Origin: an uncultured Chloroflexia bacterium
Lineage (GTDB): Bacteria; Chloroflexota; Limnocylindria; Limnocylindrales; CSP1-4
Assembly: GCA_963788375.1 (NCBI GenBank)
Contig: CAWBGT010000027.1
Span: 679,020 to 743,019 of the forward strand
Direction: 5' to 3'
Length of the DNA stretch: 64,000 bases
The position numbers and the translations under genes are program-made. This document shows positions 6,519 through 35,400 of this stretch, piece after piece (positions within the stretch are counted from its first letter, which is position 1; each line of letters opens with the position of its first letter). Below the pieces are notes generated by a model that was not told the origin of the DNA, did not search any database, and saw only the letters and a list, made by a program, of their open reading frames with translations.

Positions 6519-6638
6519 AGCGGCTGGTGGAGCCGCGGGTATCGGTTCCGTCGAATGCATCCCGGCTCTCCGCACCCGCGGCGGCGGCGACCAGGGCGAA
6601 GATCGCGAGCACGATCAGGGTGGTGATGATGGCGTCCA
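6519..6638 (-). CDS. Small single-TM peptide (40 aa: MDAIITTLIVLAIFALVAAAAGAESRDAFDGTDTRGSTSR).
   Basis: Read by hand from the reverse strand. ATG is preceded by AGGAGAC. The stop overlaps the RBS of the downstream ORF. It is below the ORF-track length cutoff. Confidence 0.3.
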
Positions 6639-6654
6639 TCGGGTGTCTCCTCGC

Positions 6655-6732
6655 GTCCGATCACGTAACCGGACCAGTACATCTAACTAGTTACGAACTC
6701 TACCCGCTTGCGCGTAACCTGTCAACAGGTTT
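6655..6732. promoter_or_regulatory. Divergent intergenic region with three GTAAC(C)...GGTTAC inverted repeats and a perfect 14-bp palindrome ACCTGTCAACAGGT.
   Basis: Palindromes read directly from the sequence. They lie between the small-peptide operon (minus) and the CGNR regulator gene (plus). Confidence 0.4.
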
Positions 6733-7399
6733 ATGGTGGTTACGACGCCAAGATGCCGAACCAAGCCCCCTCCACCCCCAGCCCACGTCCACGCCGCCAC
6801 TCTCGACGCCTGTCTCGAGTTCATCAACACGGTCGAGCTCACCGACGGCCGGCCCGAAGACCACCTGCCCACTGCCGATGATGCGGTCGCGTTCCTGGTG
6901 GACCGCGGCCTCGCACACGAGCAGGATCTCCAGCGGCAGGCAGACCGGGACGGCTCGCGCTGGCTGGCGCGGATCCAGGCGGCGCCGGCAGGCACTGCGC
7001 GACGTCTGGGACGCCCAGGTCGAGGGTCGCGCCGCCGCGGCCGAGGCGCTCGCCACGCTCAACGTGCTCCTCGATGGAGGTCCGCGGGTCGAGTTGCGGC
7101 CGGGGCCCATCGGGATCGAGGTCGCCCACCGGCACTCGGAGGACGACCCCACCGGCGAGGCACTGGCGCTGCTGGCGGCCCCGCTCGTCGAGGTGCTCGC
7201 CTCGGGCGCGACCGACCGCCTCAGGATCTGCGCCAACGACGGCTGCCGCTGGGTGTTCGAGGACACGTCGCGCGCGGGCCGCCGTCGCTGGTGCGACATG
7301 ACCACCTGCGGGAACCGCGCGAAGGCGCGGCGCTTCCGCTCGAAGGCGCGGAGCGACCACGCGGAGGAGGCGCTGCCCCCCTCGGGGGAGGGTCGGTGA
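6733..7399 (+). CDS. ABATE plus CGNR zinc-finger putative stress-responsive regulator, interrupted by a +1 frame change near 6985 (pseudogene or sequencing indel).
   Basis: The N-terminal ABATE-like part ('LDACLEFINTVELTDGRPEDHL') is in the frame of ORF 6733. The C-terminal part ('CANDGCRWVFEDTSRAGRRRWCDMTTCGNRAKARRFR') is in the frame of ORF 6527..7399. Confidence 0.6.
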
Positions 7400-12392: not shown

Positions 12393-13846
12393 TCAGCCGC
12401 CTCCGATTTCGGACTGGCCGTGCTGCAGCCACTCGGCCGTCCGGGGTGCCCAGCGCCCGTCCGGTTCAAGCAGGACCGCCAGACGGCGGAGGTCCGCCAG
12501 CGTGTCGACGTCCGGCCAGGACTCGACGTCGGCCACCTGCCAGCCGGCCGACGCGAGGCCGTTCCTTGCGGAATCGAACGCGGTGGTGCCGGCGGTGGCG
12601 CCATCGGTGAAGGCTCCCCTCAGCCTGGCCGCCAGGTTGCGCCGGACCCGGCGTCGGAATGGGGCCGGGGTTGTCCGCGGAAGCTGCCGCCAGCGGGCGC
12701 CGACCAGGTGGTAGCCGCCGTCCTCGGCAGGTCCCAGGACGGCACTTCGAGGGCCACGGGCGAGCACGGCCATCGCGGCCTCGATGCGGGCCGGCGGCAA
12801 CCCGGGCGCGTCACCCGCGACGGCGATGGCACGATCCGCGCCGCGGTCGAACGCCGCGAGGAAGACATCGGCAAGCGCCGCTCCCAGCCCCGGGCCCGTC
12901 TGGATGACCGGCGTCCAGGCCGGACCGATGATCCGGGCGACCGAGTCCACATCAGCGACGGACGGGAGCATGGCCATCGGGTTCCAGCGAGCGGATCGCG
13001 CCGCCGCGAGCGCGCCATCGGCGGCATCGGCCATGCAGGCGGTCCAGAAGGCCGTCGTGGCCTCGTCGCCGATCTCGGCGGCCAGGCGCGTCTTGGCCCG
13101 GCCCGGCCCGGGAGCCTTGACCATGAGGGCGAGGAGGGGTCGCGCCGCCGTCTCCGACCAGGCACGCCCGACCATGGCCCGGCCGGCCGCCACGGACGCT
13201 CGCAATGAGCCGGAGACCTTGCTCGTGCCGCCCCGGCGTCGCCGGAAACGGACCGGCACCTCCCGGTACCGGATGGTGGGCTCGGCGAGCACCCGCGCGA
13301 CCAGCTGGGTCGTCCAGCCGTAGCCCGCATCGTCGAGGTCGAGCCGGCCGAGGACGGGAGCGCGCAGGGCCTTGAACGGCGGCAGGTCGTGGACGATGCG
13401 CCCGGTCCGGATCGACATCACGGCGGCGACCAGGTCGTTGCCGAGCCGGGCATGCCAGGGCATCGCGCCGTCCTCGACCAGGCGACCCGGTCGCCTGCCG
13501 AACGCCACGTCCGCCGACCTCAGCGCCACGACCAGGGCCGGCAGGTCCGCAGGGTCGCAAGAACCGTCGCCGTCCAGGAACGCCACCCCGTCATGGGTGT
13601 GGCCGGACGTAGTGGGATCCAGGGCATGTTCGGCGCCGGTGAGGCAGGCGCGCCCGTAGCCGCGTCGCGGCTCGTCGATGAGGATGCCGCCTGCTTCCGC
13701 CGCAGCGCGCCGCGTCCCGTCGCGCGACCCACCGTCGACCACGAAGGCACAGCACGCCCCCGATGCGCGCATGCCGCGGACGACGGCCCCGATCGCGGTC
13801 TGCTCGTCGATGACCGGGATGACGGCGGCGATGGCCGGGCTCATGG
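12393..13846 (-). CDS. GT2 glycosyltransferase (TIGR04283-like), fused or translationally contiguous with a DUF2064 / TIGR04282-like nucleotidyltransferase-like domain.
   Basis: N-terminal 'MSPAIAAVIPVIDEQTAIGAVV...DGGSRDGT' is a GT-A fold motif. C-terminal 'LLALMVKAPGPGRAKTRL...AIAVAGDAPGLP...GGYHLVG' matches DUF2064. No stop separates the two domains, so they may be two genes if a frame error exists. ATG overlaps the upstream stop (ATGA). Confidence 0.65.
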
Positions 13847-15401
13847 TGTGGCCCCATCCGGCTCGGGTGCCCAGACGATGAACTCGCCATCGTCGACCAG
13901 CACCGCGCGATCCCCGGCCAGGAGCGAGGCGAGCATCTTGTCGTGGCGGTTCCGGGCCCGAAGCGTCGGCGACCATGGCGTGCGGTCCATGACGACATAC
14001 GCATTCGCGGGAGGGACCGGGCCGGCCATCAGGCGCCGGATGTCGGTTCGCGCGGCGAGTGGCGCCACCAGCCCCTCGTCTGCCGCAAGGATCGCTTCGG
14101 CAGGCACGATGGCGGCCGCCAACTCCAGTCCATCCAGCCGGGCAGGCCGGGCGGCGAACGCTGGGTCGCTCATGTCGAACGGCGGGATTGAGCCCTGGAC
14201 CCAGGCGCCGACCGCCGCCGGGATGATCAGCAGCAAGGCCAGCAGAGGAGCGAGCCGCCGGGTCTGGGAATCGGGGGCGCCGCGACCCGGCGCGTCCCGC
14301 GGTCGGCGACGCGGGCCCCGCCGCCACCTTCGCTCGGCGACCGCCAGTACCCGTCGCCCGCCGAACCCGGCGGCAACGATCAGCGGCACCACCAGGATCA
14401 GCCCGTACTGGAGCCGCAGGTTCGCCTGGAAGTCGTTGGCGGACAGGAGTGCGGCGGCCATCGGTGGCAGGGCCAGGAGCAGCCAGCGCGGACGGACCAG
14501 GGGCAGGCCGAGGAGGGCGACGACCATCCCGGCTGCGGCAAGCCACGGCGTGGCCCGGGCGATGTGGGCAACGACCGCGGCAGTCCGCTCGAACGGCGCC
14601 AGCAGGACGGCAAGCCCGCCGCCAAGCCAGGCGTAGTAGCGGTCGGTATCGGCCCCGGCGCCGTCGCGGATGGCCGGCATCACGAGGCCGAAGGCCGCGA
14701 TCGCCCAGGCGGCGGCCACGAGCACGAGGAACCGGCCCTGGCGGCGGGTCGAGCCGCGGCCCCGGACCGCCACCGCCAGTCCGACCACGGCGACCGCGTA
14801 GCCAACGTCCTCGCGGGTCGCGAGCGCCAGCAGCGCGAGCGCCCACATCGCGCGATGGCGCTTCGTGAGCCCCGCCCATCCGGCGAGGAGCGCGAGCGCG
14901 ATGCCCGCGGTCTCGGGATGGAAGTCGGCCCGGATGACGTCCTGTATCGTGCCCCACAGCGGGATCCCAATCGCCAGGACCGCGGCGAGCACCGGCCCGA
15001 ACTCGGCCGGGACGGAGCAGCGCGCGGAGGAACAGGAAGGTGGCCGGGATCAGCGCCGCGACCGACACGGCGTGGGCCAGGTTGAGGACGCGCACGTCCG
15101 GCCCGACGAGGCGCTCGATCGCGGCCGGGACCACCAGGATCGGCGAGAAGTGGAGCCCGAGGAACGACCCCTCGTGGAAGCTCGAGACCCAGCGACCGCT
15201 GTCGGCGACGTTCCAGACGACCTGCTGGAAGAAGGCCAGGTCGTATGGCGGGGCCGCGAGACCCACGGTGCGGCTCACGAGGAGTGCGGCCACCCAGGCC
15301 GCTGTCGCGATCGTCGCCAGCCCAACGAGGCCGGCCGGGATCGCCCCGCGCCCGAGCCCAGGGTTCACCCGGCTCCCGATCAGCCGGCCGCCGGAGCGGC
15401 G
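13842..15401 (-). CDS. DUF2079-family polytopic membrane protein, with an apparent frameshift near 15005.
   Basis: 'YDLAFFQQVVWNVADSGRWVSSFHEGSFLGLHFSPILV' is in the frame of the 1344-aa ORF. The continuation 'EFGPVLAAVLAIGIPLWGTIQDV...' is in the frame of ORF 13841..14992. Confidence 0.55.
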
Positions 15402-16418
15402 TGTCCGCTCGGAACGGGTCAGGAGTGGCTTCCCCGACGCGCGATAGCCATCCGCGATCCCCCGCGCCGCGGTCTCGATGGCCTGGGCAGCGGACAGCCG
15501 CGGCTCCCAGCCAAGGGCCCGCAGCGCCGAGGTCTCGAACTCGACATAGGGCGTGTCACCCGCCCAGCCGCCGCCACCGGGGCCGCGGCCCGCGTACGTC
15601 AGCTCGACCGACGCGGGCGCGAGTCCCAGGGCCTCGATCACGATCGCGGCCACGCGCTGGACGGTGACGGTCCCCTCGGTCCCGACGTTCAGGATCGTCA
15701 TCGGGGACCGCGCCGCCGCCGCAACTCCGCGCCGGATCCCGGCGACCAGGTCGTCCACGGCGATGTAGGGCTTCGCCTGGGTGCCGTCGCCCAGCATCTC
15801 GAGGCGGGTCGGGTCCCGCAGGAGCTTGACCACGAAGTCATGGACCACGCCATGGTTCGATCGCGGGCCGACCGTGTTGCCGAAGCGGAACGCGTGCGCC
15901 CGCCAGCCGTACAGGCTTGCGAAGCCCGAGATCAGCGCCTCGCCGGCAAGCTTCGCGGCCGCGTAGTGCGACTCCGGCAGCAGCGGGCCGTCGCCTTCCC
16001 CGGTCGGGATCCGGGCCGGGCGGCCGTAAACGACCCCGGAGGAGGCGAACCAGATCTCGTCAATCCCGACCGCGTGCATCGTCTCGCACACGAGTTCGGT
16101 GCCCACGACGCCGCTCGCGAAGTCCCGCTCGGGGTGGTCGAAGCCCCCGGCGATGTCTGTTCCCGATGCGAGGTGGACCACGCGACGGTGGCCGGCCATG
16201 GCGTCCCGGAGCGCGTCGCGGTCCGTGATGTCGCCGCGGACAAAGTCCAGGAGCGGGTCTCCGTCGAACCGGGTCGCCCAGTCCGGCTCCGCGGTCGAGA
16301 GGTTGTCGAAGACGGTGACGGGTGCCCCGTCACGCAGCAGCGATGCGACCACCTCGCCGCCGATGAACCCGGCGCCGCCGGTGACGAAGGTCCGGACCGG
16401 CTCCAGGCGGTCCGTCAT
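15402..16418 (-). CDS. NAD-dependent epimerase/dehydratase (SDR family). There is no in-frame stop before the DUF2079 region, so the 3' boundary is approximate.
   Basis: 'TFVTGGAGFIGGEVVASLL' Rossmann motif and an 'YAAAK' catalytic motif. ATG at 16418 overlaps the DoxX stop (ATGA). Confidence 0.7.
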
Positions 16419-16975
16419 CCGGGCCATCGGCGACGAGCGAGCGCCAGCCGGGCGTCAAGGCCGTGCCAGCGGCCGGCGCGGAAGACGGCGAGGCACAGGA
16501 GCGGCACCCATTCCACCGAGTACTCGTAGATCCACTTGTCGTTCCACAGCGTCGCGAACTGCAGGTGGAGCGCCATGCCCGCCGCGACCAGCGCCGCGAT
16601 CGGGGTGACCAGGCCCAGGATCAGCAGGACGCCGACGATCGTCTCGACCAGTCCCACCGAGAAGCCGAAGAACCCGAAGTTGGGCAGCACGACGCCCTCG
16701 ATGAAGGAGCGGTAGGGCTCGATCGGATGCGGCTGGGTGATCACCTCGTACTTGAGGATCGACTGGGCGCTGCGACCACCCTCGGCGTTGATGACGAACC
16801 CCAGCGGCGTGTCGGGCCACAGGTTCGGGACGGCCGGCAGGATCTTGGCCAGGCCGTTGTGCAGGAAGACCACGCCGAAGAAGATCCGCAGCGTGGCCAT
16901 CGCGCGGCCGAACCACAGCCCGGTCGCGATGGCGGCGATCGCCTCGGATTGCGCGCTGCGTGCGCTGGTTTCCAC
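16415..16975 (-). CDS. DoxX-family membrane protein.
   Basis: 'LRIFFGVVFLHNGLAKIL' and four predicted TM helices. Confidence 0.65.
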   Translation of the reverse strand: METSARSAQSEAIAAIATGLWFGRAMATLRIFFGVVFLHNGLAKILPAVPNLWPDTPLGFVINAEGGRSAQSILKYEVITQPHPIEPYRSFIEGVVLPNFGFFGFSVGLVETIVGVLLILGLVTPIAALVAAGMALHLQFATLWNDKWIYEYSVEWVPLLCLAVFRAGRWHGLDARLALARRRWPG

Positions 16976-26383: not shown

Positions 26384-26468
26384 TGGTGGGCCGGGGCGGA
26401 ATCGAACCGCCAAAGTCGAAGACGAGGGTTTTACAGACCCTTGGGCTCACCACCTGCCCGACCGACCC
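26384..26468 (-). tRNA. tRNA-Tyr (anticodon GTA), type II with a long variable arm, CCA encoded.
   Basis: Hand-folded: acceptor GGGTCGG/CCGGCCC, anticodon loop CTGTAAA, variable arm CGTCTTCGACTTT, T-loop TTCGATT. Confidence 0.85.
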
Positions 26469-26472
26469 ACGA

Positions 26473-26548
26473 TGGTGGAGATGAGGGGACTCGAACCCCT
26501 GGCCTCCGCGATGCGAACGCGGCGCTCTTCCAGCTGAGCTACATCCCC
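26473..26548 (-). tRNA. tRNA-Ala (anticodon CGC), CCA encoded.
   Basis: Hand-folded: acceptor GGGGAUG with G3:U70, anticodon loop TTCGCAT, T-loop TTCGAGT. It is 4 nt from tRNA-Tyr. Confidence 0.9.
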
Positions 26549-26640: not shown

Positions 26641-27540
26641 ATGCCCACCGGTCTTGCGCTCGGCCTGTTCGCCTCGTTCGCGTGGGGAATTGTGGACGTG
26701 ACCGCCGCCGTCTCCACCCGGCTGATCGGGAGCCTGCGGGTGCTGGTGGGGGCACAGCTGGTGAGCCTCGCCGCGCTCGCGCTGATCGCCTTCGCCCAAC
26801 CGGAGCTCCTCGGCGCGGCACCCATCGAGGGCATCGTGGCTGGGTTCCCGCTCGGCATCCTGGCGGCCGCTGCCTATCTCGCCTACTTCACGGCGCTGCG
26901 GATCGGCCCGGTGAGCATCGTCAGCCCGGTGATCATGGCCTACGGCGGCGCAACGGTGATCCTGGCGGTGCTGGTGCGGGGCGAGACGCTGTCGACGCAG
27001 CAGGCTGCCGGAGCCATCCTGGCCACGGCGGGCGTGGTGCTGGCGGGCGTGACCTTCGAGGCAGGTGCGCTGCGGGGGATGCGGGTCGTGGGGCCGGGCG
27101 TGGTCGCGGCGGTGCTGACGCTGGTCGGGTTCGCGGTGCTGACGGTGGGCCTCGCGTCACCTATCCGGGATCACGGCTGGCTGCCGGTGGTGATCGGCTC
27201 GCGGATCGGGAACAACGTCGGTTCGCTGGCGCTGCTGGCCGTGGCCCTGGTGTCGGGTTCGAGGCGGTTCCAGCCGCTCCTGGAGCCGTCGGGCGGGTGG
27301 TCGCGCACCGCGCTGGCGCTGGTCGTGGCCTGCGGTGCATTCGATATCGCGGCCTTCGTGGCCTACGCGATCGGGCTGAGCATCGCGCCGGTGTGGCTGG
27401 TTGGGCTGTCGAGCTCGTTCGGGCCGGTCCTTGCGGTGGCCTACGCGGTGACACGGCTGGGCGAGCGTCCGCACCGGACGCAGTGGGCCGGTCTCGCGCT
27501 GATCGGCGCGGGCGTCGTGGTCCTTGCCGTGGCCTGGTAG
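26641..27540 (+). CDS. EamA/DMT-family transporter (10 TM).
   Basis: Two EamA-like halves. Hydrophobic profile of the ORF 26641..27540 translation. Confidence 0.75.
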   Translation: MPTGLALGLFASFAWGIVDVTAAVSTRLIGSLRVLVGAQLVSLAALALIAFAQPELLGAAPIEGIVAGFPLGILAAAAYLAYFTALRIGPVSIVSPVIMAYGGATVILAVLVRGETLSTQQAAGAILATAGVVLAGVTFEAGALRGMRVVGPGVVAAVLTLVGFAVLTVGLASPIRDHGWLPVVIGSRIGNNVGSLALLAVALVSGSRRFQPLLEPSGGWSRTALALVVACGAFDIAAFVAYAIGLSIAPVWLVGLSSSFGPVLAVAYAVTRLGERPHRTQWAGLALIGAGVVVLAVAW

Positions 27541-27589
27541 CGGCGGACCCGGCGCAGCAGATGATGGGCCCGCGGCCACCATTTCGACC

Positions 27590-27617
27590 TTGACGGATAG
27601 AACAGACGTTCTATTAT
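27590..27617 (+). promoter_or_regulatory. SOS promoter with a LexA box (GATAGAAC-AGAC-GTTCTATT) between a -35 TTGACG and a -10 TATTAT, 11 nt upstream of the imuA' ATG (likely leaderless or short-leader mRNA).
   Basis: GAAC-N4-GTTC palindrome of the Gram-positive/actinobacterial LexA type. Nearly identical to the box upstream of dnaE2. Confidence 0.7.
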
Positions 27618-27627
27618 TGGACGTCCG

Positions 27628-28914
27628 ATGGCTCGCACATCCGACGTCTCCGAGGCTCTCGCAACGCTCCAGGCTCGCTGGGGAGCGGCTGCTCCACGAC
27701 GTGGCGGCGACATGGGGCTCGTGGTCGAGGGCGCGCTGGCCAGGGCGCCGATGCCGGAGCCGGACTCGGAGTCGGATCGGGCCCCGGATCCGCTTGCGCC
27801 AACGCCACTCATGCCGGCCATCCGGCACCGTCCGGGGGTACCGGTCCCGGACGCGGACGGACGGATCGTTTCCACGGGGTTCGCGGAGCTGGACGCCATC
27901 CTGGGCATGGGCGGGCTGCCGCGCTCGGCCACGGTCGCGCTGCGTGGGGACGCGTCGTCGGGCAGGACCACGGTCGCGCTGCGGGTGGCGGCGGAGGCGC
28001 AGGCCGGCGGGGCGATCGTCGCGTGGCTGGACCTGGCCCGCGCCTTCGACCCCGTGGAGGCCGTCGCGCGTGGCATCCGGCCGGAGTGGCTGGTGGTGCT
28101 GACGCCCGTGGACCTGGAGGAGGCGCTCGCCATGGCGGGAGCCCTGCTGGCCGCCCGGACCGTGGACCTGCTGGTGATGGACCTGCCGGACGGCCGTGCC
28201 CCGGCGCTCGCCGGGAAGCGGGTGGGGGACCGGCTGAACCGGCTTGCCGCGCTGGCGAGACGGGCCGGGACGCTGCTCGTCGTCCTGGAGCCCGCGTCCC
28301 TCGGGCGGGGCCTGGCGGCCGCCGTGGAGGCGGCGAGCGGCCTGCGCCTGGAGCTTCGCCGGTCGGGCTGGATCCGCCTGGGCCGGGACGTCGTCGGGCA
28401 GCGAAGCGCCGTGGAGGTGGCCCGCAACCGGTACGGCCCGCCCGGCCGCCGCACCGTCCTCGAGATCCTGTACGCGGAGGGCGGTCCACGGGATGCATGC
28501 CTGCTCCGCCCGGAGCTGCTGGCCGGGCTTGCCGCCCCGGTCGCGCCTCCGGGGACAAGGACTGCGGCTGGCCCGCCGGCAACCGCCGTGCCACCGGCAC
28601 TCACCGATCTGAAAGGCCCCCCGGCATCGATCGATACCCATGCGCCTGCTGCACCTGCTCTGGCCACACCTGCCCCTGCTCCTGGCGAGGACACGGATGG
28701 AGGCACCGACCCCGGGGAGCCACGGCTCCTTGTCGGACGGCACCTCCGGCTCGTGGCCGCCCGGCCCGATCGTCCTCGGCGGCCAACCCTGGATGGACGG
28801 GACCGTGGTGGACGCGGATCCCCTCGCCCGGGCCCTCGGCGTGCGCCGGGGGATCCCGCTCGGGAGCGCCCACCGGCTCGCGCCCGAGGCGACCTTCCTG
28901 GACCTCGCGCCTGA
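27628..28914 (+). CDS. imuA: ImuA' (RecA-fold SOS mutasome accessory protein) with a low-complexity C-terminal tail.
   Basis: RecA/KaiC-like core 'STGFAELDAILGMGGLPRSATVALRGDASSGRTTVALRVAAEAQAGGAIVAWLD'. LexA box upstream. imuB and dnaE2 downstream. Confidence 0.65.
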   Translation: MARTSDVSEALATLQARWGAAAPRRGGDMGLVVEGALARAPMPEPDSESDRAPDPLAPTPLMPAIRHRPGVPVPDADGRIVSTGFAELDAILGMGGLPRSATVALRGDASSGRTTVALRVAAEAQAGGAIVAWLDLARAFDPVEAVARGIRPEWLVVLTPVDLEEALAMAGALLAARTVDLLVMDLPDGRAPALAGKRVGDRLNRLAALARRAGTLLVVLEPASLGRGLAAAVEAASGLRLELRRSGWIRLGRDVVGQRSAVEVARNRYGPPGRRTVLEILYAEGGPRDACLLRPELLAGLAAPVAPPGTRTAAGPPATAVPPALTDLKGPPASIDTHAPAAPALATPAPAPGEDTDGGTDPGEPRLLVGRHLRLVAARPDRPRRPTLDGRDRGGRGSPRPGPRRAPGDPARERPPARARGDLPGPRA

Positions 28915-29953
28915 CGCGGACCGGGACGCGGTCGAAGCCGCCTGCGAGCGGCTTGCCACGTTCAGTCCCGGGATTGCCGGCACGAGCGACGTCACGGATC
29001 CCTCGTTCGGTCGGATCGCCGTCCACGTCGACGGCCTGACGCGCCTGTGGGGCGTGGAGGAGACGCTGGTCGCGCGGATGACGGCGGCGCTTGCCCCGGT
29101 CCTCCCGGGCCGGCCCCGTGCCGGCATCGCTGGGACAGCCTTCGCCGCCTCCGTGGCCGCCGCGCACGCGCAGGAGGGCGGCCCCCCGCTCCTGGTCCCG
29201 CCCGGCGACGACGACCGGTTCCTCGCACCCTACCCGGCGGGGCTGCTCACGCGGGACCCGGACGTGCGGGCGCGACTCGCCCGCTTCGGGCTCCGGTCGA
29301 TCGGGGCCGTGGCGGAGCTCTCGCGCTCCGCGCTGGTGGCGCGCTTCGGCGAGGAGGGAGCGAGGATCCACGCGCATGCCCGCGGGGAGGAGACGGAGCG
29401 GTTCCAGCCGCGCAGGGCCCCGGAGCGGATGGTCCTCGGCCTCTCGCTGGAGCCGTCGGCAGAGGGCCTCGAGGCGGTCCGGTTCGTGCTCCGCCGGCTC
29501 GCGGCGGCATTGGCGGAGCAGCTCGCGACGCGCGGGCGCGCGGCGGGGCTGGCGCGACTCGTCGTCACCCACGACCTGGCCTTCGCGCGTCGCGGGACGC
29601 CGCCGGAGCTCCGCCTCGAGCAGCGGTTCCCGGAGCCAACGGCGGATGCCGAGGCCATCGAGCGCCTCCTCGTCGCCCGTCTCGAGCAGATCCCGCCGCC
29701 GGCCGCCGTGGCGCGTCTCGAGCTGGAGCTGGCGCTGGTGGAGCCTGCCCGGGGCCAGCAGCTCCCGCTGTTCACCCCGCAGGCGGCACGGGACGCACGT
29801 CTCGGCTGGCAGCTGGCGCGCCTGGCGATCGCGTTCGGGTCGGACCGGGTGCGGAGGGTGGAGCTGGCCGACACCGAGGCCCCGCTCGCCGAGGCCCGCT
29901 GGCGCTGGCATGCCGTTGCCGGGGCGGCGGTGGTGGGCGAGGAACGGCGATGA
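28640..29953 (+). CDS. imuB: ImuB, a catalytically inactive Y-family polymerase paralog of the SOS mutasome.
   Basis: DinB-like fold regions ('IAVHVDGLTRLWGVEETLVARM...', 'FGLRSIGAVAELSRSALVARFG'). Position between imuA' and dnaE2. Start is uncertain and overlaps the imuA' 3' tail. Confidence 0.75.
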   Translation: MRLLHLLWPHLPLLLARTRMEAPTPGSHGSLSDGTSGSWPPGPIVLGGQPWMDGTVVDADPLARALGVRRGIPLGSAHRLAPEATFLDLAPDADRDAVEAACERLATFSPGIAGTSDVTDPSFGRIAVHVDGLTRLWGVEETLVARMTAALAPVLPGRPRAGIAGTAFAASVAAAHAQEGGPPLLVPPGDDDRFLAPYPAGLLTRDPDVRARLARFGLRSIGAVAELSRSALVARFGEEGARIHAHARGEETERFQPRRAPERMVLGLSLEPSAEGLEAVRFVLRRLAAALAEQLATRGRAAGLARLVVTHDLAFARRGTPPELRLEQRFPEPTADAEAIERLLVARLEQIPPPAAVARLELELALVEPARGQQLPLFTPQAARDARLGWQLARLAIAFGSDRVRRVELADTEAPLAEARWRWHAVAGAAVVGEERR

Positions 29954-30190
29954 CCCGTCTGCTGCACGAGCATCCGCTGGTCGACGCGGAGCTGGACCCG
30001 GGAGGACGCCTTGTGGCGATCCGCTGGAACGGCCGGCGGGAGCCCGTCGAGGTCTGCAACCGCTGGCGGGTGGAGGAGTCCTGGTGGCGGGAGCCGATCG
30101 CCCGGGACTACTTCAAGGTGGTCGGGGACGTCGTGGCTGGCACTCGTCTACCTGGACCGGACGGCCGGGACGTGGCACCTGGAGCGGCTC
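29950..30190 (+). CDS. Small conserved-looking ORF (~80 aa) translationally coupled to imuB (ATGA overlap), with an apparent frameshift in a G-run near 30130.
   Basis: 'MTRLLHEHPLVDAELDPGGRLVAIRWNGRREPVEVCNRWRVEESWWREPIARDYFKVVGD' continues in the +1 frame as '...SWLALVYLDRTAGTWHLERLYD*'. Confidence 0.4.
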
Positions 30191-30265
30191 TACGATTGAC
30201 CCGGCCCAGGATGGTCAGGCAGGAGTCGGAGCGTGGCGGCGACCGGTCGGACGACGGTCGGGAAC

Positions 30266-30374
30266 GTCAGCGGAGCGCCGGCGACCCGAACGCGATCGAG
30301 ACCACGAGCAGCACGAGGAACAGCCCCACGACCAGGGCGAGGGCGCCGAGGTCACGCGGTCGTGTCGTCTGCAT
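30266..30374 (-). CDS. Single-TM micro-peptide (35 aa: MQTTRPRDLGALALVVGLFLVLLVVSIAFGSPALR).
   Basis: Read by hand from the reverse strand. Below the ORF-track cutoff. In tandem with a second, similar peptide. Confidence 0.3.
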
Positions 30375-30478
30375 TCGTTCCCATTCCCCCAAAGTTCGGA
30401 CCGGTTCCCGGCCGGTCGCCGGCGTATGGACGCCGGGCCCCCGCCAGATGTTGCGGCAGCCAGACGCTCCCGCGCCGG

Positions 30479-30578
30479 ATCAGGCCGGCATTCCCGCGAA
30501 GACCACCAACACCACGAGCACGGCCAGCAGAAGCACCAGCAGGCCGGCGCTCACGAACTCGCGCGTCTTGGGTTCCAT
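30479..30578 (-). CDS. Single-TM micro-peptide (32 aa: MEPKTREFVSAGLLVLLLAVLVVLVVFAGMPA).
   Basis: Read by hand from the reverse strand. Strong AGGAGG RBS 7 nt upstream of the ATG. Below the ORF-track cutoff. Confidence 0.35.
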
Positions 30579-30603
30579 GCGGTCGCGCCTCCTCTTGTCC
30601 GGT

Positions 30604-31206
30604 TCAGCCCTCGCCGCCGGCACAGCCGGCGCCGTAGAGCACGATGATCATCGTCGATTCGCCCGCCGGGCGGAAGGTCGTCTGGATCCGGCACTCCGGG
30701 AGGTCCGAGACCGTGTCAAGGACACGGCTCCCGTCCTCGAGCGCGGACGACAGGTTGTCGGTCGTGAAGCCCAGCTCCTCGAGCGTGTCGCGGTACCAGC
30801 GGGCGACCGCGCTCACGTCGTCGCCAGTCAGCCAGGCACCACTCGCCGGGCCGCCGGACGGCTCCACGGCACTGGCCCCCGGGTAGACCGGGAACCCCTC
30901 GGGGACGGCGTCCAGGATGGTGCCCCAGTCGGTTGCCGTCGTGGACGTTGCGGCCGGCTCCTCGGGTGGGACGTCCGACGGACCGCCCGGGACGATGGTC
31001 GGCGGCGGTGCCTGCGTCAGGACCGGGGTGGGCTCGATCACACCGGGCGTCGATGCCGGGCCGGCCACCGACGGCGCTGCCGTTGTGGATGGCCCGGGTC
31101 CTCCGCATGCGGCCAGGCCGGCGACCATGCCGGCCAGTGCCAGTGTCCACATGAGGAGGACAGGAGTGGAGGTCGGGCGGCAAGGCTCGATGCGCATCGG
31201 CCTCAT
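30604..31206 (-). CDS. Lipoprotein (hypothetical); start is uncertain.
   Basis: 'MWTLALAGMVAGLAACGGPGPS' signal peptide with lipobox, then a Pro/Thr linker and a ~110-aa domain. Confidence 0.45.
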   Translation of the reverse strand: MRPMRIEPCRPTSTPVLLMWTLALAGMVAGLAACGGPGPSTTAAPSVAGPASTPGVIEPTPVLTQAPPPTIVPGGPSDVPPEEPAATSTTATDWGTILDAVPEGFPVYPGASAVEPSGGPASGAWLTGDDVSAVARWYRDTLEELGFTTDNLSSALEDGSRVLDTVSDLPECRIQTTFRPAGESTMIIVLYGAGCAGGEG

Positions 31207-31700
31207 GGTAGCGGCCACCCGGCGACGACACGCCCGGGCGAGCAAGGACCCTCGCCGCCCCAGCGGCGAGGGTCCTTTCGGCGGTCTCCGGGCTGCCCAA
31301 GCTCCGGGGACAGGTCGGCGGTCGCGATGGCGCGACCGCCGCCGGTGCGCTAGACGGCCGCCTCCGCGATTGCGGGAAGGAGGCCGAAGATTGCGATCGC
31401 GACCAGCGCGGCCGCCGCCAGCCGCAGGAGGAGCTCGCGGGCGACGCGGTGGTCGGGGCGGTGGCCCAGGTTCGTGATCACGCGCATCAGACGCGCGACC
31501 GGCTGGTTTGGTTGCGCTCCGGGACAGGCAATTTCCGGCGACGAGCAAGCTCCGGCGACGCGCAAGCTCCGGCTGCGCCTGGTTCGCAGCCTACAATTCC
31601 CCGGCCCGCCGCCGCCCAGCTCCGCACCGCCCCGCCGAGGACCTCGTTGACCCTGCGCCCGCTCCAGCCCACTGCCCCACCGTCCAAGTCGACGCTCGTC

Positions 31701-32333
31701 CTGCCGGGACGCTTTCGGGCCGCGGTGTTCGACATGGACGGGCTCCTCCTGGACACGGAGCCGCTGTGGCACGACGCCGAGCGCGAGCTGCTCGAGCGGC
31801 ACGGCGACACGTTCTCGCCCGCCGACATGGAGGCGTCCCACGGCCGGGCGGTGTCCGAGACCGCGACGGCCTACTCGGGGCGGCTCGGGCTGCCCCCGGA
31901 GGTCATCGAGCGCGAGATCGTCGAGATCATGCTCGCCCACTACGCGGCCGGCGCCACACCGTGCGCCGGAGCGCGGGAGCTGGTCGATGCCCTCGATGGA
32001 CGGCTGGCGCTCGCCGTCGCGTCCAACACCTCGGCGGGGCTGGTGCGCCGGGCGCTGGACACCTCGGGCCTGGCGATGCTGCAGGTGGTGGTCTCGGGGG
32101 CGGACATGGGCCGGCCCAAGCCCCTGCCGGACGTCTACCTGGCGGCCTGTCGGGCGCTGGGCGTGGCGCCTGGCGATGCGGTCGCCTTCGAGGATTTGCC
32201 GATGGGCGTCCGCTCTGCCGTCGATGCCGGCCTGTTCGTGGTCGGGGTTCCGGATCGCGACGACGTGGACCTCGCGACTGCCGGGGCACACGTCGTGCTG
32301 AGGTCGCTGGTGGAGGTCGTCGTCAGCGCCTGA
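31701..32333 (+). CDS. HAD-superfamily hydrolase (beta-phosphoglucomutase / phosphatase-like); start is approximate.
   Basis: Motif I 'AAVFDMDGLLLDTEPLW'. Motif III/IV 'VVSGADMGRPKPLPDVYL...VAFEDLPMGVRSAVDAGLFVVGV'. Confidence 0.7.
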   Translation: MPGRFRAAVFDMDGLLLDTEPLWHDAERELLERHGDTFSPADMEASHGRAVSETATAYSGRLGLPPEVIEREIVEIMLAHYAAGATPCAGARELVDALDGRLALAVASNTSAGLVRRALDTSGLAMLQVVVSGADMGRPKPLPDVYLAACRALGVAPGDAVAFEDLPMGVRSAVDAGLFVVGVPDRDDVDLATAGAHVVLRSLVEVVVSA

Positions 32334-32353
32334 CGCCCGGAGGGACTGGTATC

Positions 32354-32373
32354 GATAGAACAGATGTTCTATC
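32354..32373 (+). promoter_or_regulatory. LexA box GATAGAAC-AGAT-GTTCTATC (perfect palindrome), 30 nt upstream of the dnaE2 start.
   Basis: Differs at only 2 positions from the imuA' box. Confidence 0.7.
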
Positions 32374-32403
32374 ATTCCGATCCGCCCCCCGGAGACCGTC
32401 GCC

Positions 32404-35400
32404 GTGGCCCCTCCTCCCTACGCCGAGCTGCACTGCCACAGCCACTTCTCGTTCCTGGACGGGGCGTCCGCTCCCGACGATCTCGTTGCCCAAGCCGTGG
32501 AGCTGGGGCTGGCCGGTCTCGCCATCACGGACCACCAGGGCCTGTACGGGGCCGTCCGGTTCTCCGCCGCCGCGGAGGCCGCGGGGCTGCGCCCGGTGAT
32601 CGGGATCGAGGTGGAGCTCGTCGATGCGGCGGTGCCGGACCCTGCCGGGATCGTGGTGCCGGCGAGGCGTGCATGGAAGCCGGGGCGTCGAGCGCCCGTC
32701 CAGCCCGAGGCACCCCGGGTGATCGACGGCCGTCCTGTCCGCCCTCGCCCCGAGCGCGCCCGGCTGCCGGGCCATCGGCAGGTGGTCAAGGAGGATCACC
32801 GGGGAGTCGGCGAGGCGCAGCGTGGCCCGCACCTGGTCCTGCTGGCGCGCGACGCGACGGGCTGGCGGAGCCTGTGCCGGCTGGTGTCGCGGGCGAACCT
32901 AGCCGGCACGAAGGCGGTCCCCGGGTTCAGCCAGGCTCTCCTGGCCGAGCACGCCGAGGGGCTGATCGCGCTGTCTGGCTGCCGCCACGGGGAGGTGGCG
33001 AGACGCCTTCGGGCGGGGGATCGCGAGGGGGCGCGGGCCGTGGCGGAGCGGTACGCGGTGCTGTACGGGCCGCGCGGCACGGGCGGTGGAAGGGGCACGA
33101 GCGGTGGAATGGGCGCGGCCGGGGGCGCGGCGGGGGGGCCGGCCGCCGCCGGCTTCGTCCTGGAGCTCACGCACCACCTGCTGCCCGACGACGACTGGCT
33201 CGCATCCGAGACCGCGCGCCTGGCCGAGGAGCTGGGGCTGCCGGTGGTGGTCACCAACGACGTCCACTACGCCCTCCCCGAGGGCCGCGAGCTGCAGGAC
33301 GTCCTGACCGCGATCCGGCACGGACGGTCCCTGTCGGACCTGGCGGACCTGCGCCGGCCGGACGGGGAGTCGTATATCAAGGGTGCGCCGGAGCTCCTTG
33401 CCCTGCCACCCGGGGAGCCGGCCACCGAGGCCGCCGACCCGGTGCTGGCCCGGGCATGGCGGGCAGGGATCGCGGCATCGGTCGAGATCGCCGCGGCCTG
33501 CCGGGTCGAGCTGGCGTTCGAGCGCTACCGCTTCCCGGGCTTCGCCGTACCGAAGGGGCAGACGCCGTTCAGCCACCTGTCTGAGCTGTGCTGGGAGGGC
33601 GCCCGGCGCCGGTATCACCCGCTCACGCCGGCCGTGCTCCGGCAGCTGGCCCACGAGCTGGACGTCATCGAGCGGACCGGCCTCGCGGAGTTCTTCCTCA
33701 TCTGCTGGGACCTGATGCAGTTCGCGAAGTCGCGTGGCATCCCGGCGCAGGGACGGGGGAGCGCGGCGGGTTCGATCGTGACCTACGTGCTGGGTATCGC
33801 GCGGGTGGACCCGATCCGTCACGAGCTGCTGTTCGAGCGGTTCATCAACGAGGGGCGGACGGCCTACCCGGACGTCGACATCGACTTCTCCTCCGAGCGG
33901 CGGGAGGAGGTGATCCAGTACGTCTACGAGAAGTACGGCCCCGAGCACACCGGGATGGTCTGCAACCTCGTCACGTACCGGGCCCGGTCGGCGGTCCGCG
34001 AGGTGGGGCGCGCGCTGGGGTTCCCGGGACCGCTGGTGGACCGGGTGGCGAAGGCGCTCGAGACGTACGACTCGGTGATGGTGCGGCGGGACCTGGAGGC
34101 CGAGGGCGGGTTTGGGGCGTTCTTCGCGCAGCCGGGCGAGGGCACGGGCGGGGGCACGGGCGGGGGACCCTCGGACGCCGTGCGGGGCTCGCGACGGGTC
34201 GTGGCCGAGCTGGAGGTGGCCCGCGCGGCCGCCCTGACCGGCGAGCGCGGGCTCACGGACTCGATGGGGCAGCTCAACCACGCGCGTGGCGGGCGGCTCG
34301 GGATGGACCTCGCGGCGGCCAGCGGGACCTGGGCGGGCGCTCCAGGCTCAGCACCTGCGATCCGGCCCGGTGGGCGGGCTGACGACGAGGGCGGTCCGGG
34401 TGACACCCCGGCCAGCGTCGCCTGGCTGCGGGCGGGCCGTGGGACCGGATCCAGCGTCGCCCGCATCGGGCCGGAGCCCGTGAAGGTCCCGGACCCGGCC
34501 CCGGACTCGGTCCCGGACCCGGCACGCCACGAGGGATCCGTCGCGGGCCTCTCGGACTGGGAGCGCTGGCTGGAGCTGTGCGCCCGCATCGACGGCTTCC
34601 CTCGCCACCTCTCGATCCACAGCGGCGGCATGCTGGTGACCGCAGCCCCCCTCATCGACATCGCCCCCATCGAGCGGGCGACCATGCCGGGGAGGGTCGT
34701 CGTCCAGTTCGACAAGCGCGACGTCGAGACGATGAAGCTGATCAAGCTCGACCTGCTCGGCCTCGGCATGCTCGCCGCCATCGACGAGACGGTCCAGCTC
34801 ATCGAGCACGACTGCGCCGTCTGCCTGGACCTCGACCGCCTGCCGGAAGAGGTCCCCGAGGTCTTCGCCATGCTCCAGGCGGCGGACACCGTGGGCGTGT
34901 TCCAGGTCGAGAGCCGGGCGCAGATGCAGACCCTGCCCAAGTCGCGTCCGGCCAGCCTCGACGACCTGGTGGTGGAGGTGGCGATCATCCGGCCGGGCCC
35001 GATCCAGGGGAACGCTGTCCACCCGTACCTGCGTCGCAAACAGGGCCTGGAGCCGGTCACGTACCTCCATCCCAGCCTGGAGCCGATCCTCCACGACACC
35101 CTGGGCGTGATCCTCTATCAGGAGCAGGTGATGAAGATCGCGATCGACGTCGCGGGGTTCACGCCTGCGGGCTCCGACGGGTTCCGGCGGGCGATGGGGA
35201 CGTATCGCTCCGCCGGCGAGATGGAGCGGCTCCACGTGGAGTTCGTCGAGGGTTGCCGACGCGTCCATGGGATCCCGCCCGACGACGCCGAGGAGCTGTT
35301 CCGCCGCTGTGCCGCATTCGCCTCGTTCGGGTTCGCGAAGAGTCACGCCGCGGCGTTCGCCCGGACCGCGTACGAGTCCAGCTTCCTCAAGCTGTTCTAC

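Follow-up and report, generated by a model that had tools for sequence, protein, structure and literature searches.

What is encoded by the small open reading frame (ORF) that starts within the stop codon of imuB in the stretch of DNA analysed here, a 64,000-nucleotide segment (the window) of a contig from an uncultured Chloroflexota bacterium of the class Limnocylindria (CAWBGT010000027.1)? A first-pass annotation had considered this ORF, after a one-base correction of its frame, as a possible further component of the mutasome acting in SOS mutagenesis. Our analysis retains the real gene, the stop/start overlap, the one-base correction and the SOS context, but not the new component. We consider it highly probable that the ORF represents a split-off gene for ImuB-C, the domain normally located on the C-terminus of canonical ImuB itself, within an SOS cassette, and that its interruption in the window most likely reflects an assembly error. 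The domain content of the mutasome is unchanged; the gene structure alone differs.

The open reading frame behind imuB

The ATG of the small ORF overlaps the TGA of imuB in the tetranucleotide ATGA (29950–29953), as had been recognized beforehand. The reading frame opened there starts with MTRLL and continues to VEVCNRWRVEESWWREPIARDYFKVVGD (also given as MTRLLHEHPLVDAELDPGGRLVAIRWNGRREPVEVCNRWRVEESWWREPIARDYFKVVGD), after which no stop codon is met until 31353; the imuB frame beyond the break reads SWLALVYLDRTAGTWHLERLYD and terminates at a stop codon at 30197–30199. Both peptides quoted in the first-pass annotation are present in the window. Deletion of a single base, either C30123 or any one G of 30124–30127, joins the two pieces and yields the same product of 82 residues in each case. 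Related loci contain exactly one base fewer at this site, and the closest homologue, P0001, has the same KVVGTSWLALVY junction as the corrected peptide. The postulated one-base correction is thus borne out and fixes the frame to an 82-residue protein, with the break at 30123–30127 and not in a G run at ca. 30128–30135, and with the ORF ending at 30199 instead of 30190.

A search with the corrected peptide against 5.8 billion proteins provided 685 homologues at E ≤ 0.01, nearly all of exactly 82 residues and with identities of up to 93%. When each GTDB species was represented by a single genome, 441 of the genomes scanned encoded a relative; the matches listed among them all originate from Limnocylindria or other Chloroflexota metagenome-assembled genomes (MAGs), and long-read MAGs are frequent among the related genomes. 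The ORF is intact at 82 codons and positioned directly after imuB in each of 83 related loci; homologues next to imuB in other genomes, which the first-pass annotation had named as a check on its proposal, are thus present in all of these loci. Among 84 distinct DNA copies the mean pairwise differences per site amount to 0.12 at the first, 0.09 at the second and 0.37 at the third codon position, a pattern which indicates purifying selection on the frame of the ORF on the + strand. Residues R3, R30, R40, R52, W75 and R79 are invariant in 16 sequences, in agreement with the consensus of the 84 copies. A chance ORF is ruled out by the number of homologues, the intact loci and the codon-position signature, and the overlapping minus-strand ORFs were rejected as the usual open frames of DNA with 72% G+C, the signature of selection being found on the + frame. 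The 82-residue ORF, whose sequence had been described as non-random beforehand, is therefore a real gene under purifying selection, and its neighbourhood and the associated LexA-type boxes (see below) are conserved as well.

The start of the ORF reads ATGA or GTGA in all 83 loci and forms a four-base overlap with the imuB stop in 73 of them; in the remaining ca. 10 loci the imuB stop is located 10–103 nt upstream of the ORF or, in locus L017, the imuB frame runs into it. As in the window, imuB and the small gene are separate ORFs in 82 of the 83 related loci, and a Shine-Dalgarno-like purine stretch precedes the ORF start in 63 of 86 cases. These data bear on the possibility of a −1 ribosomal shift near the imuB stop, which would generate an ImuB–ImuB-C fusion and no separate protein. 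Such a scenario could draw on the position of the ORF in the −1 frame relative to imuB, on canonical ImuB, which constitutes a fusion of this kind, and on the uninterrupted frame of L017. However, the start codon (ATG or GTG) is conserved without exception and frequently accompanied by the purine stretch, the sequence ahead of it lacks conservation and is free of slippery heptamers, and some of the spacers in the ca. 10 loci with a more distant imuB stop themselves contain stop codons. A frameshifted fusion protein is thus highly improbable, and we regard the ORF as a gene with a start of its own.

As a side observation, the imuB frame of L017 (ca. 6600–7249) continues without a stop into the 82-residue ORF, which results in an apparent ImuB–ImuB-C fusion via a junk-like linker; this is either a natural re-fusion or an insertion/deletion error (indel) in that long-read MAG.

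Identity of the 82-residue protein

A profile built from 16 family members retrieved 498 relatives at E ≤ 0.001 from 1.84 billion representative proteins (HMMER), mostly standalone proteins of 80–86 residues. The same domain forms the extreme C-terminus of P0245 (501 residues, E = 2.6e-9) and P0266 (538 residues, E = 1.2e-8), two Y-family polymerase homologues without catalytic residues from other Chloroflexota, the latter directly followed by dnaE2. Canonical ImuB sequences were taken from two Streptomyces plasmid cassettes, each consisting of a hypothetical gene, a Y-family protein and an error-prone polymerase, and 77 relatives of the Streptomyces ImuB C-terminus were collected, most of which are named 'protein ImuB' by their source. 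Comparison of the family with 70 actinobacterial C-termini by hhalign resulted in a probability of 94.5% (E = 7.7e-8) over 63 columns extending to the last residue of both families, compared to at most 4.2% for the reversed and ten column-shuffled controls. The pattern W..ERWW...AR..V...G.A.LL......W..E..YD is common to both. On the basis of these sequence comparisons, the 82-residue protein is a standalone ImuB-C domain, homologous to the C-terminus of canonical ImuB.

The ImuB-C domain was described as a beta-rich module of ca. 80 residues with a conserved C-terminal Trp and basic residues, which is either fused to ImuB or occurs alone (PMC3765255), and as a beta-barrel of novel fold without close relatives in the PDB (PMC12926913). 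The AlphaFold2 model of the 82-residue protein, with a predicted local distance difference test score (pLDDT) of 91, is composed of eight beta strands and contains no helix. Neither a significant relative of the model among solved structures nor a meaningful match of the family profile to PDB chains was found, and canonical ImuB matched REV1 as the sole entry among PDB chains. All features delineating the ImuB-C superfamily (Aravind et al. 2013) are found here, i.e. a beta domain of ca. 80 residues, the profile relationship, the conserved Trp and Arg residues and a neighbourhood of translesion synthesis polymerases.

Overlaps of the family with the Pfam model DUF6504 (PF20114) suggest that this model describes ImuB-C. 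It is reached or approached by distant family members, namely by P0148 with 30.6 bits (gathering threshold 24.2 bits), by P0161 with 19.6 bits and by the C-termini of P0245 and P0266 with ca. 15 bits. Neither the window protein nor its close relatives match this model at E ≤ 1, and the precomputed Pfam column of the close relatives is empty. A literature search for 'DUF6504' yielded no paper. In hundreds of Limnocylindria genomes the family is annotated as 'hypothetical protein' without a Pfam domain, and the predicted identity as ImuB-C would provide these entries with a function.

Origin of the frame break

The extra base in the window copy most likely arose in the assembly, as an erroneous insertion. 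A frameshift is found in none of the 83 related loci, both halves of the interrupted gene are family-like (78.7 and 25.9 bits to the family hidden Markov model, HMM), and the stretch of 23 residues that follows the break is shared unchanged with P0004. Moreover, an unrelated gene of the same window, coding for a DUF2079 membrane protein on the − strand (13841–15260), is split between frames by an extra base in a CCC run at ca. 15011–15013 (GGG on the + strand), and deletion of one C merges its partial Pfam matches of 27 and 79 bits into one of 108.9 bits covering profile positions 7–319. Two one-base insertions in short G runs of otherwise well-kept genes argue for errors of the assembly.

A genuine frameshift would imply that the ImuB-C gene is a fresh pseudogene originating from a very recent mutation and that the DnaE2 mutasome is crippled or lost. 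The extra base is, after all, present in the sequence as given, and loss of mutagenic cassettes occurs in nature. This explanation is nevertheless rather unlikely, as the two halves have remained fully family-like up to the exact match with P0004, the imuA'-like gene, imuB and dnaE2 are intact, the break has no counterpart in the related loci, and the same kind of insertion in the DUF2079 gene points to the assembly. For annotation, the break is best regarded as a probable error of the assembly rather than a loss of the gene. Scarcely credible is a function of the G run as a contingency locus, at which slipped-strand changes would toggle the mutasome. The break indeed resides in a short G run of a gene controlling mutagenesis, but the run comprises four G only, the relatives carry GGA, GGC or GGG, and neither a long tract nor a variation in length is found among the 83 loci. 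Two exact-pattern scans of metagenome contigs around the frameshift site gave no match, and no record of the window's exact ImuB was found in the contig collection.

Several points weigh against the proposed interpretation as a whole. The uncorrected window copy is a broken gene, whose last 23 residues including the invariant W75 would be lost, and homopolymer errors typically affect runs longer than the four G present here. The corrected window peptide has no Pfam or NCBIfam match at E ≤ 1, and in plain HMMER the family profile scores 7.8 bits against the two canonical Streptomyces ImuB, a co-linear and C-terminal match which is not significant; due to this weakness, the link to canonical ImuB rests on the profile–profile comparison and the fused intermediates. 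Finally, the contacts to the partners discussed below (DnaE2's PHP domain and ImuA) would apply by analogy, as they are transferred from AlphaFold models and two-hybrid and pull-down experiments on the mycobacterial proteins (PMC12926913, PMC11791113). The lacking direct Pfam match and the weak HMMER score might also speak for a mutasome accessory protein unrelated to ImuB-C, with a profile match due to convergence or composition. This is very unlikely, since the same domain is found on the C-terminus of inactive Y-family polymerases with E-values of ca. 1e-9 over the whole library, and since the hhalign probability clearly exceeds that of the controls, with an alignment reaching the C-terminal residue in both families. 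We therefore maintain the assignment to ImuB-C.

A scan of the G+C content at third codon positions (GC3) for frame switches also flagged the 3' end of the imuA'-like gene as a possible switch; further switches at ca. 2.2 kb and 18.3 kb were dismissed, as Pfam identifies ordinary adjacent genes there (ComEC and an HD protein; a radical SAM protein and a methyltransferase). Adjacent to the DUF2079 gene, an ORF for an NAD-dependent epimerase on the − strand (15330–16427) has no stop codon before it enters the beginning of the DUF2079 gene (15260), which is either due to a fusion or to a further unrecognised indel.

The predicted SOS cassette and its relation to known mutasomes

The small gene belongs to a conserved arrangement consisting of a LexA-box promoter, an imuA'-like gene, imuB and the 82-residue ORF, usually followed by a second box and dnaE2 (Table 1).

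Table 1. Predicted features of the imu cassette and the dnaE2 region in the window
Feature	Position	Strand	Remarks
Sigma-70-like promoter, TTGACG-16 nt-TATTAT	27590..27617	+	10/12 matches; sole promoter-like site in 27400-32500
LexA-box-like palindrome ATAGAACAGACGTTCTAT	27597..27614		in 16-nt spacer of the imuA' promoter
imuA'-like gene, predicted RecA paralogue	27628..28914	+	open to 28914; overlaps imuB from 28640
imuB, inactive Y-family polymerase homologue, 437 aa	28640..29953	+	Pfam IMS and IMS_C; no C-terminal ImuB-C
Beta-clamp-binding motif QLPLF, ImuB aa 374-378	29759..29773	+	by sequence inspection; conserved in relatives
RecA-NT-like motif AARDARLGWQLARLAIAFGSDRVRRVEL, ImuB aa 382-409	29783..29866	+	by position after clamp motif and resemblance to RecA N-terminus
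Predicted standalone ImuB-C domain gene, 82 codons	29950..30199	+	one extra base interrupts window copy
CGGGG, site of the single extra base	30123..30127	+	one base fewer in relatives; removal restores 82-aa protein
Second LexA-box-like palindrome ATAGAACAGATGTTCTAT	32355..32372		ahead of dnaE2
dnaE2, error-prone C-family polymerase, 1375 aa	32404..36531	+	Pfam PHP, DNA_pol3_alpha, finger, HHH_6, OB

The motif GAAC-N4-GTTC occurs exactly twice in the 64 kb of the window, before the imuA'-like gene and before dnaE2. Of the 76 related loci with at least part of the imuA'-like gene, 75 have a box at the equivalent place before the imuA' match, the one exception being truncated by the contig end; likewise, all 72 related loci containing dnaE2 have a box upstream of their dnaE2 match. 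A box placed inside the promoter spacer is a classical configuration of LexA-repressed genes. These findings suggest LexA control of an operon of the imuA'-like gene, imuB and the ImuB-C gene, and of dnaE2 by its own box. This context of palindromes and conserved neighbours lends good support to the anticipated joint role in SOS mutagenesis. Since the -10 hexamer ends 10 nt before the ATG of the imuA'-like gene (27590–27628), the mRNA of the operon may have little or no leader. An intrinsic terminator was not detected after the small ORF, and at the RNA level the 3' region is not predicted to fold any better than shuffled sequences. Just 3' of the small ORF, an element GTGGCGGCGACCGGTCGG with the palindrome CGACCGGTCG (30232–30249) is conserved in the window and in the loci L006, L007, L086 and L087; its RNA hairpin is not unusually stable.

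The protein encoded by the first gene matches the Pfam RecA family over residues 80–185 only (93 bits) and scores 96.8 bits against TIGR02012 recA (cut-off 325) and 29.8 bits against the NCBIfam ImuA model (cut-off 150). Its Walker A motif, GDASSGRTT, contains an R in place of the K (GRT instead of GKT). Judged by these matches, it is a truncated, ImuA-like RecA paralogue. A gene of this type opens the operon in the window, in locus L092 and in each of the 75 related loci whose upstream sequence extends far enough. The ORF remains open for 275 nt into imuB (28640–28914), likewise with a 239-nt overlap in L002, and the overlap may be real or just an open off-frame in GC-rich DNA. ImuB lacks acidic residues in its first 17 positions and has no DE dyad at the position of the DinB SLDE motif, as seen by inspection and by alignment with DinB. 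The counterpart of its QLPLF motif in Mycobacterium smegmatis is 352-QLPLW-356 (PMC11791113). Residues 382–409, by inspection a putative RecA-NT motif, are conserved in the relatives, and ImuB ends 28 residues after them. The length of DnaE2 varies from 1375 residues in the window and up to ca. 1500 in relatives to 1016–1047 in L092 and the Streptomyces plasmids; in the window protein the DNA_pol3_alpha match is split into two stretches by long Gly/Ala/Pro-rich inserts.

In mycobacteria, ImuB's C-terminal region binds ImuA' and DnaE2 (PMC11791113, PMC12926913), and AlphaFold models position ImuB-C against DnaE2's PHP domain and attribute to it a contribution to ImuA binding (PMC12926913). In analogy, we propose the following scenario for the split mutasome: ImuB would anchor the entire assembly on the beta clamp by way of QLPLF and hold the ImuA-like protein by its RecA-NT-like motif, while the free ImuB-C might bridge the ImuA-like protein and DnaE2. 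The overlap of stop and start codon would couple the synthesis of ImuB-C to that of ImuB and thereby keep the two products in step. Given that the binding of ImuB-C is so far known from models and truncations in mycobacteria (PMC12926913, PMC11791113), a free ImuB-C of 9.7 kDa might serve as a natural system for probing its interactions with the DnaE2 PHP domain and ImuA. An entire uncultured class of Chloroflexota from soil and freshwater carries a version of the DnaE2 mutasome consisting of four polypeptides.

Canonical ImuB-C, as represented by residues 422–525 of M. smegmatis ImuB (PMC11791113, PMC12926913), and the protein described here share the profile homology, an all-beta architecture, a W-x-x-E-x-x-Y-D/G tail, the position after the clamp and RecA-NT motifs in gene order, and the association with an ImuA-like protein, DnaE2 and LexA-type boxes. 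In contrast, the former is a covalently attached domain of ca. 104 residues and the latter a separate polypeptide, and plain HMMER links them with no more than the 7.8 bits mentioned above. On the level of the cassette, a dead Y-family polymerase with clamp and RecA-NT-like motifs and DnaE2 are found in both the canonical ImuA–ImuB–DnaE2 system and the window, but in the window ImuB-C is not fused, imuB stops at 29953 and the ImuB-C gene has its own ATG. UmuD' and YolD/YqjX of the Pol V-type mutasomes are likewise small beta-rich partners of a Y-family polymerase with a RecA-NT motif and thus functional analogues (PMC6511836); ImuB-C, however, is not an SH3-like barrel (PMC12926913), and the 82-residue protein has no autoproteolysis motif and matches UmuD', YolD and YqjX neither in sequence nor in structure.

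Standalone ImuB-C and 'split ImuB' systems are already known from publications of 2013, 2019 and 2026 (PMC3765255, PMC6511836, PMC12926913), and the 82-residue ORF is in this respect no new component. Examples are the standalone ImuB-C of the GSU0042 type (PMC3765255), the Kyrpidia tusciae operon of inactive polymerase, ImuB-C and DnaE2 (PMC6511836), and the DnaE2X-iPolY-ImuB-C-RecA systems, which were classed as 'a split ImuB' and as a possible precursor of ImuA–ImuB–DnaE2 (PMC12926913). They resemble the Limnocylindria cassette in the inactive Y-family polymerase with clamp and RecA-NT motifs, the ImuB-C of ca. 80 residues, DnaE2 and often LexA control. The published surveys were performed on complete genomes and reported split systems without ImuA, RecA being the presumed partner, whereas an ImuA-like RecA paralogue is encoded in the operon of the window and of L092; furthermore, most Limnocylindria loci carry dnaE2 about 0.5–7 kb downstream behind a LexA box of its own. 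Limnocylindria are not mentioned in the main text of the 2026 paper (PMC12926913). The combination of an operon-encoded ImuA-like paralogue with a split ImuB, not found by these surveys, is the new, albeit modest, aspect of the present cassette and qualifies the generalisation that split systems lack ImuA. Tentatively, and with less than even confidence, the Limnocylindria cassette might be viewed as a surviving intermediate between RecA-dependent split systems (DnaE2X-iPolY-ImuB-C) and canonical ImuA–ImuB–DnaE2; if so, a dedicated ImuA was recruited before ImuB-C became fused to ImuB. Secondary fission of a fused ancestor is considered as the alternative because fused forms (P0245, P0266) occur in other Chloroflexota.

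Two related arrangements may be added. In L092 (284–5493; also in L093), genes for a RecA-like protein of 202 residues, an inactive Y-family polymerase of 402 residues, an ImuB-C of 84 residues (P0161) and a DnaE2 of 1016 residues form a compact overlapping operon in a lineage distantly related to the window family. P0232, a protein of 371 residues (L094, 6001–7116), combines a RecA-like domain with an ImuB-C domain that scores 67.7 bits against the family HMM; its gene lies near a paralogue of dnaN, coding for the beta clamp, and another 82-residue gene, with no imuB or dnaE2 within 6 kb.

The surroundings of the cassette contain a tRNA-Tyr(GTA) and a tRNA-Ala(CGC) on the − strand (26384–26548), immediately upstream of a gene for an EamA transporter and of the imu genes; given a similar tRNA-derived translation upstream in L002, the pair probably reflects synteny rather than the border of an island. 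Two ORFs on the − strand that lie between the imu operon and dnaE2 encode the hydrophobic peptides MQTTRPRDLGALALVVGLFLVLLVVSIAFGSPALR (30267–30374) and MEPKTREFVSAGLLVLLLAVLVVLVVFAGMPA (30480–30578). Genes of 32–34 residues are called at the same place in L001–L003 and L086–L088, their products being single-helix membrane peptides, which may resemble SOS-linked small toxins such as TisB and DinQ.

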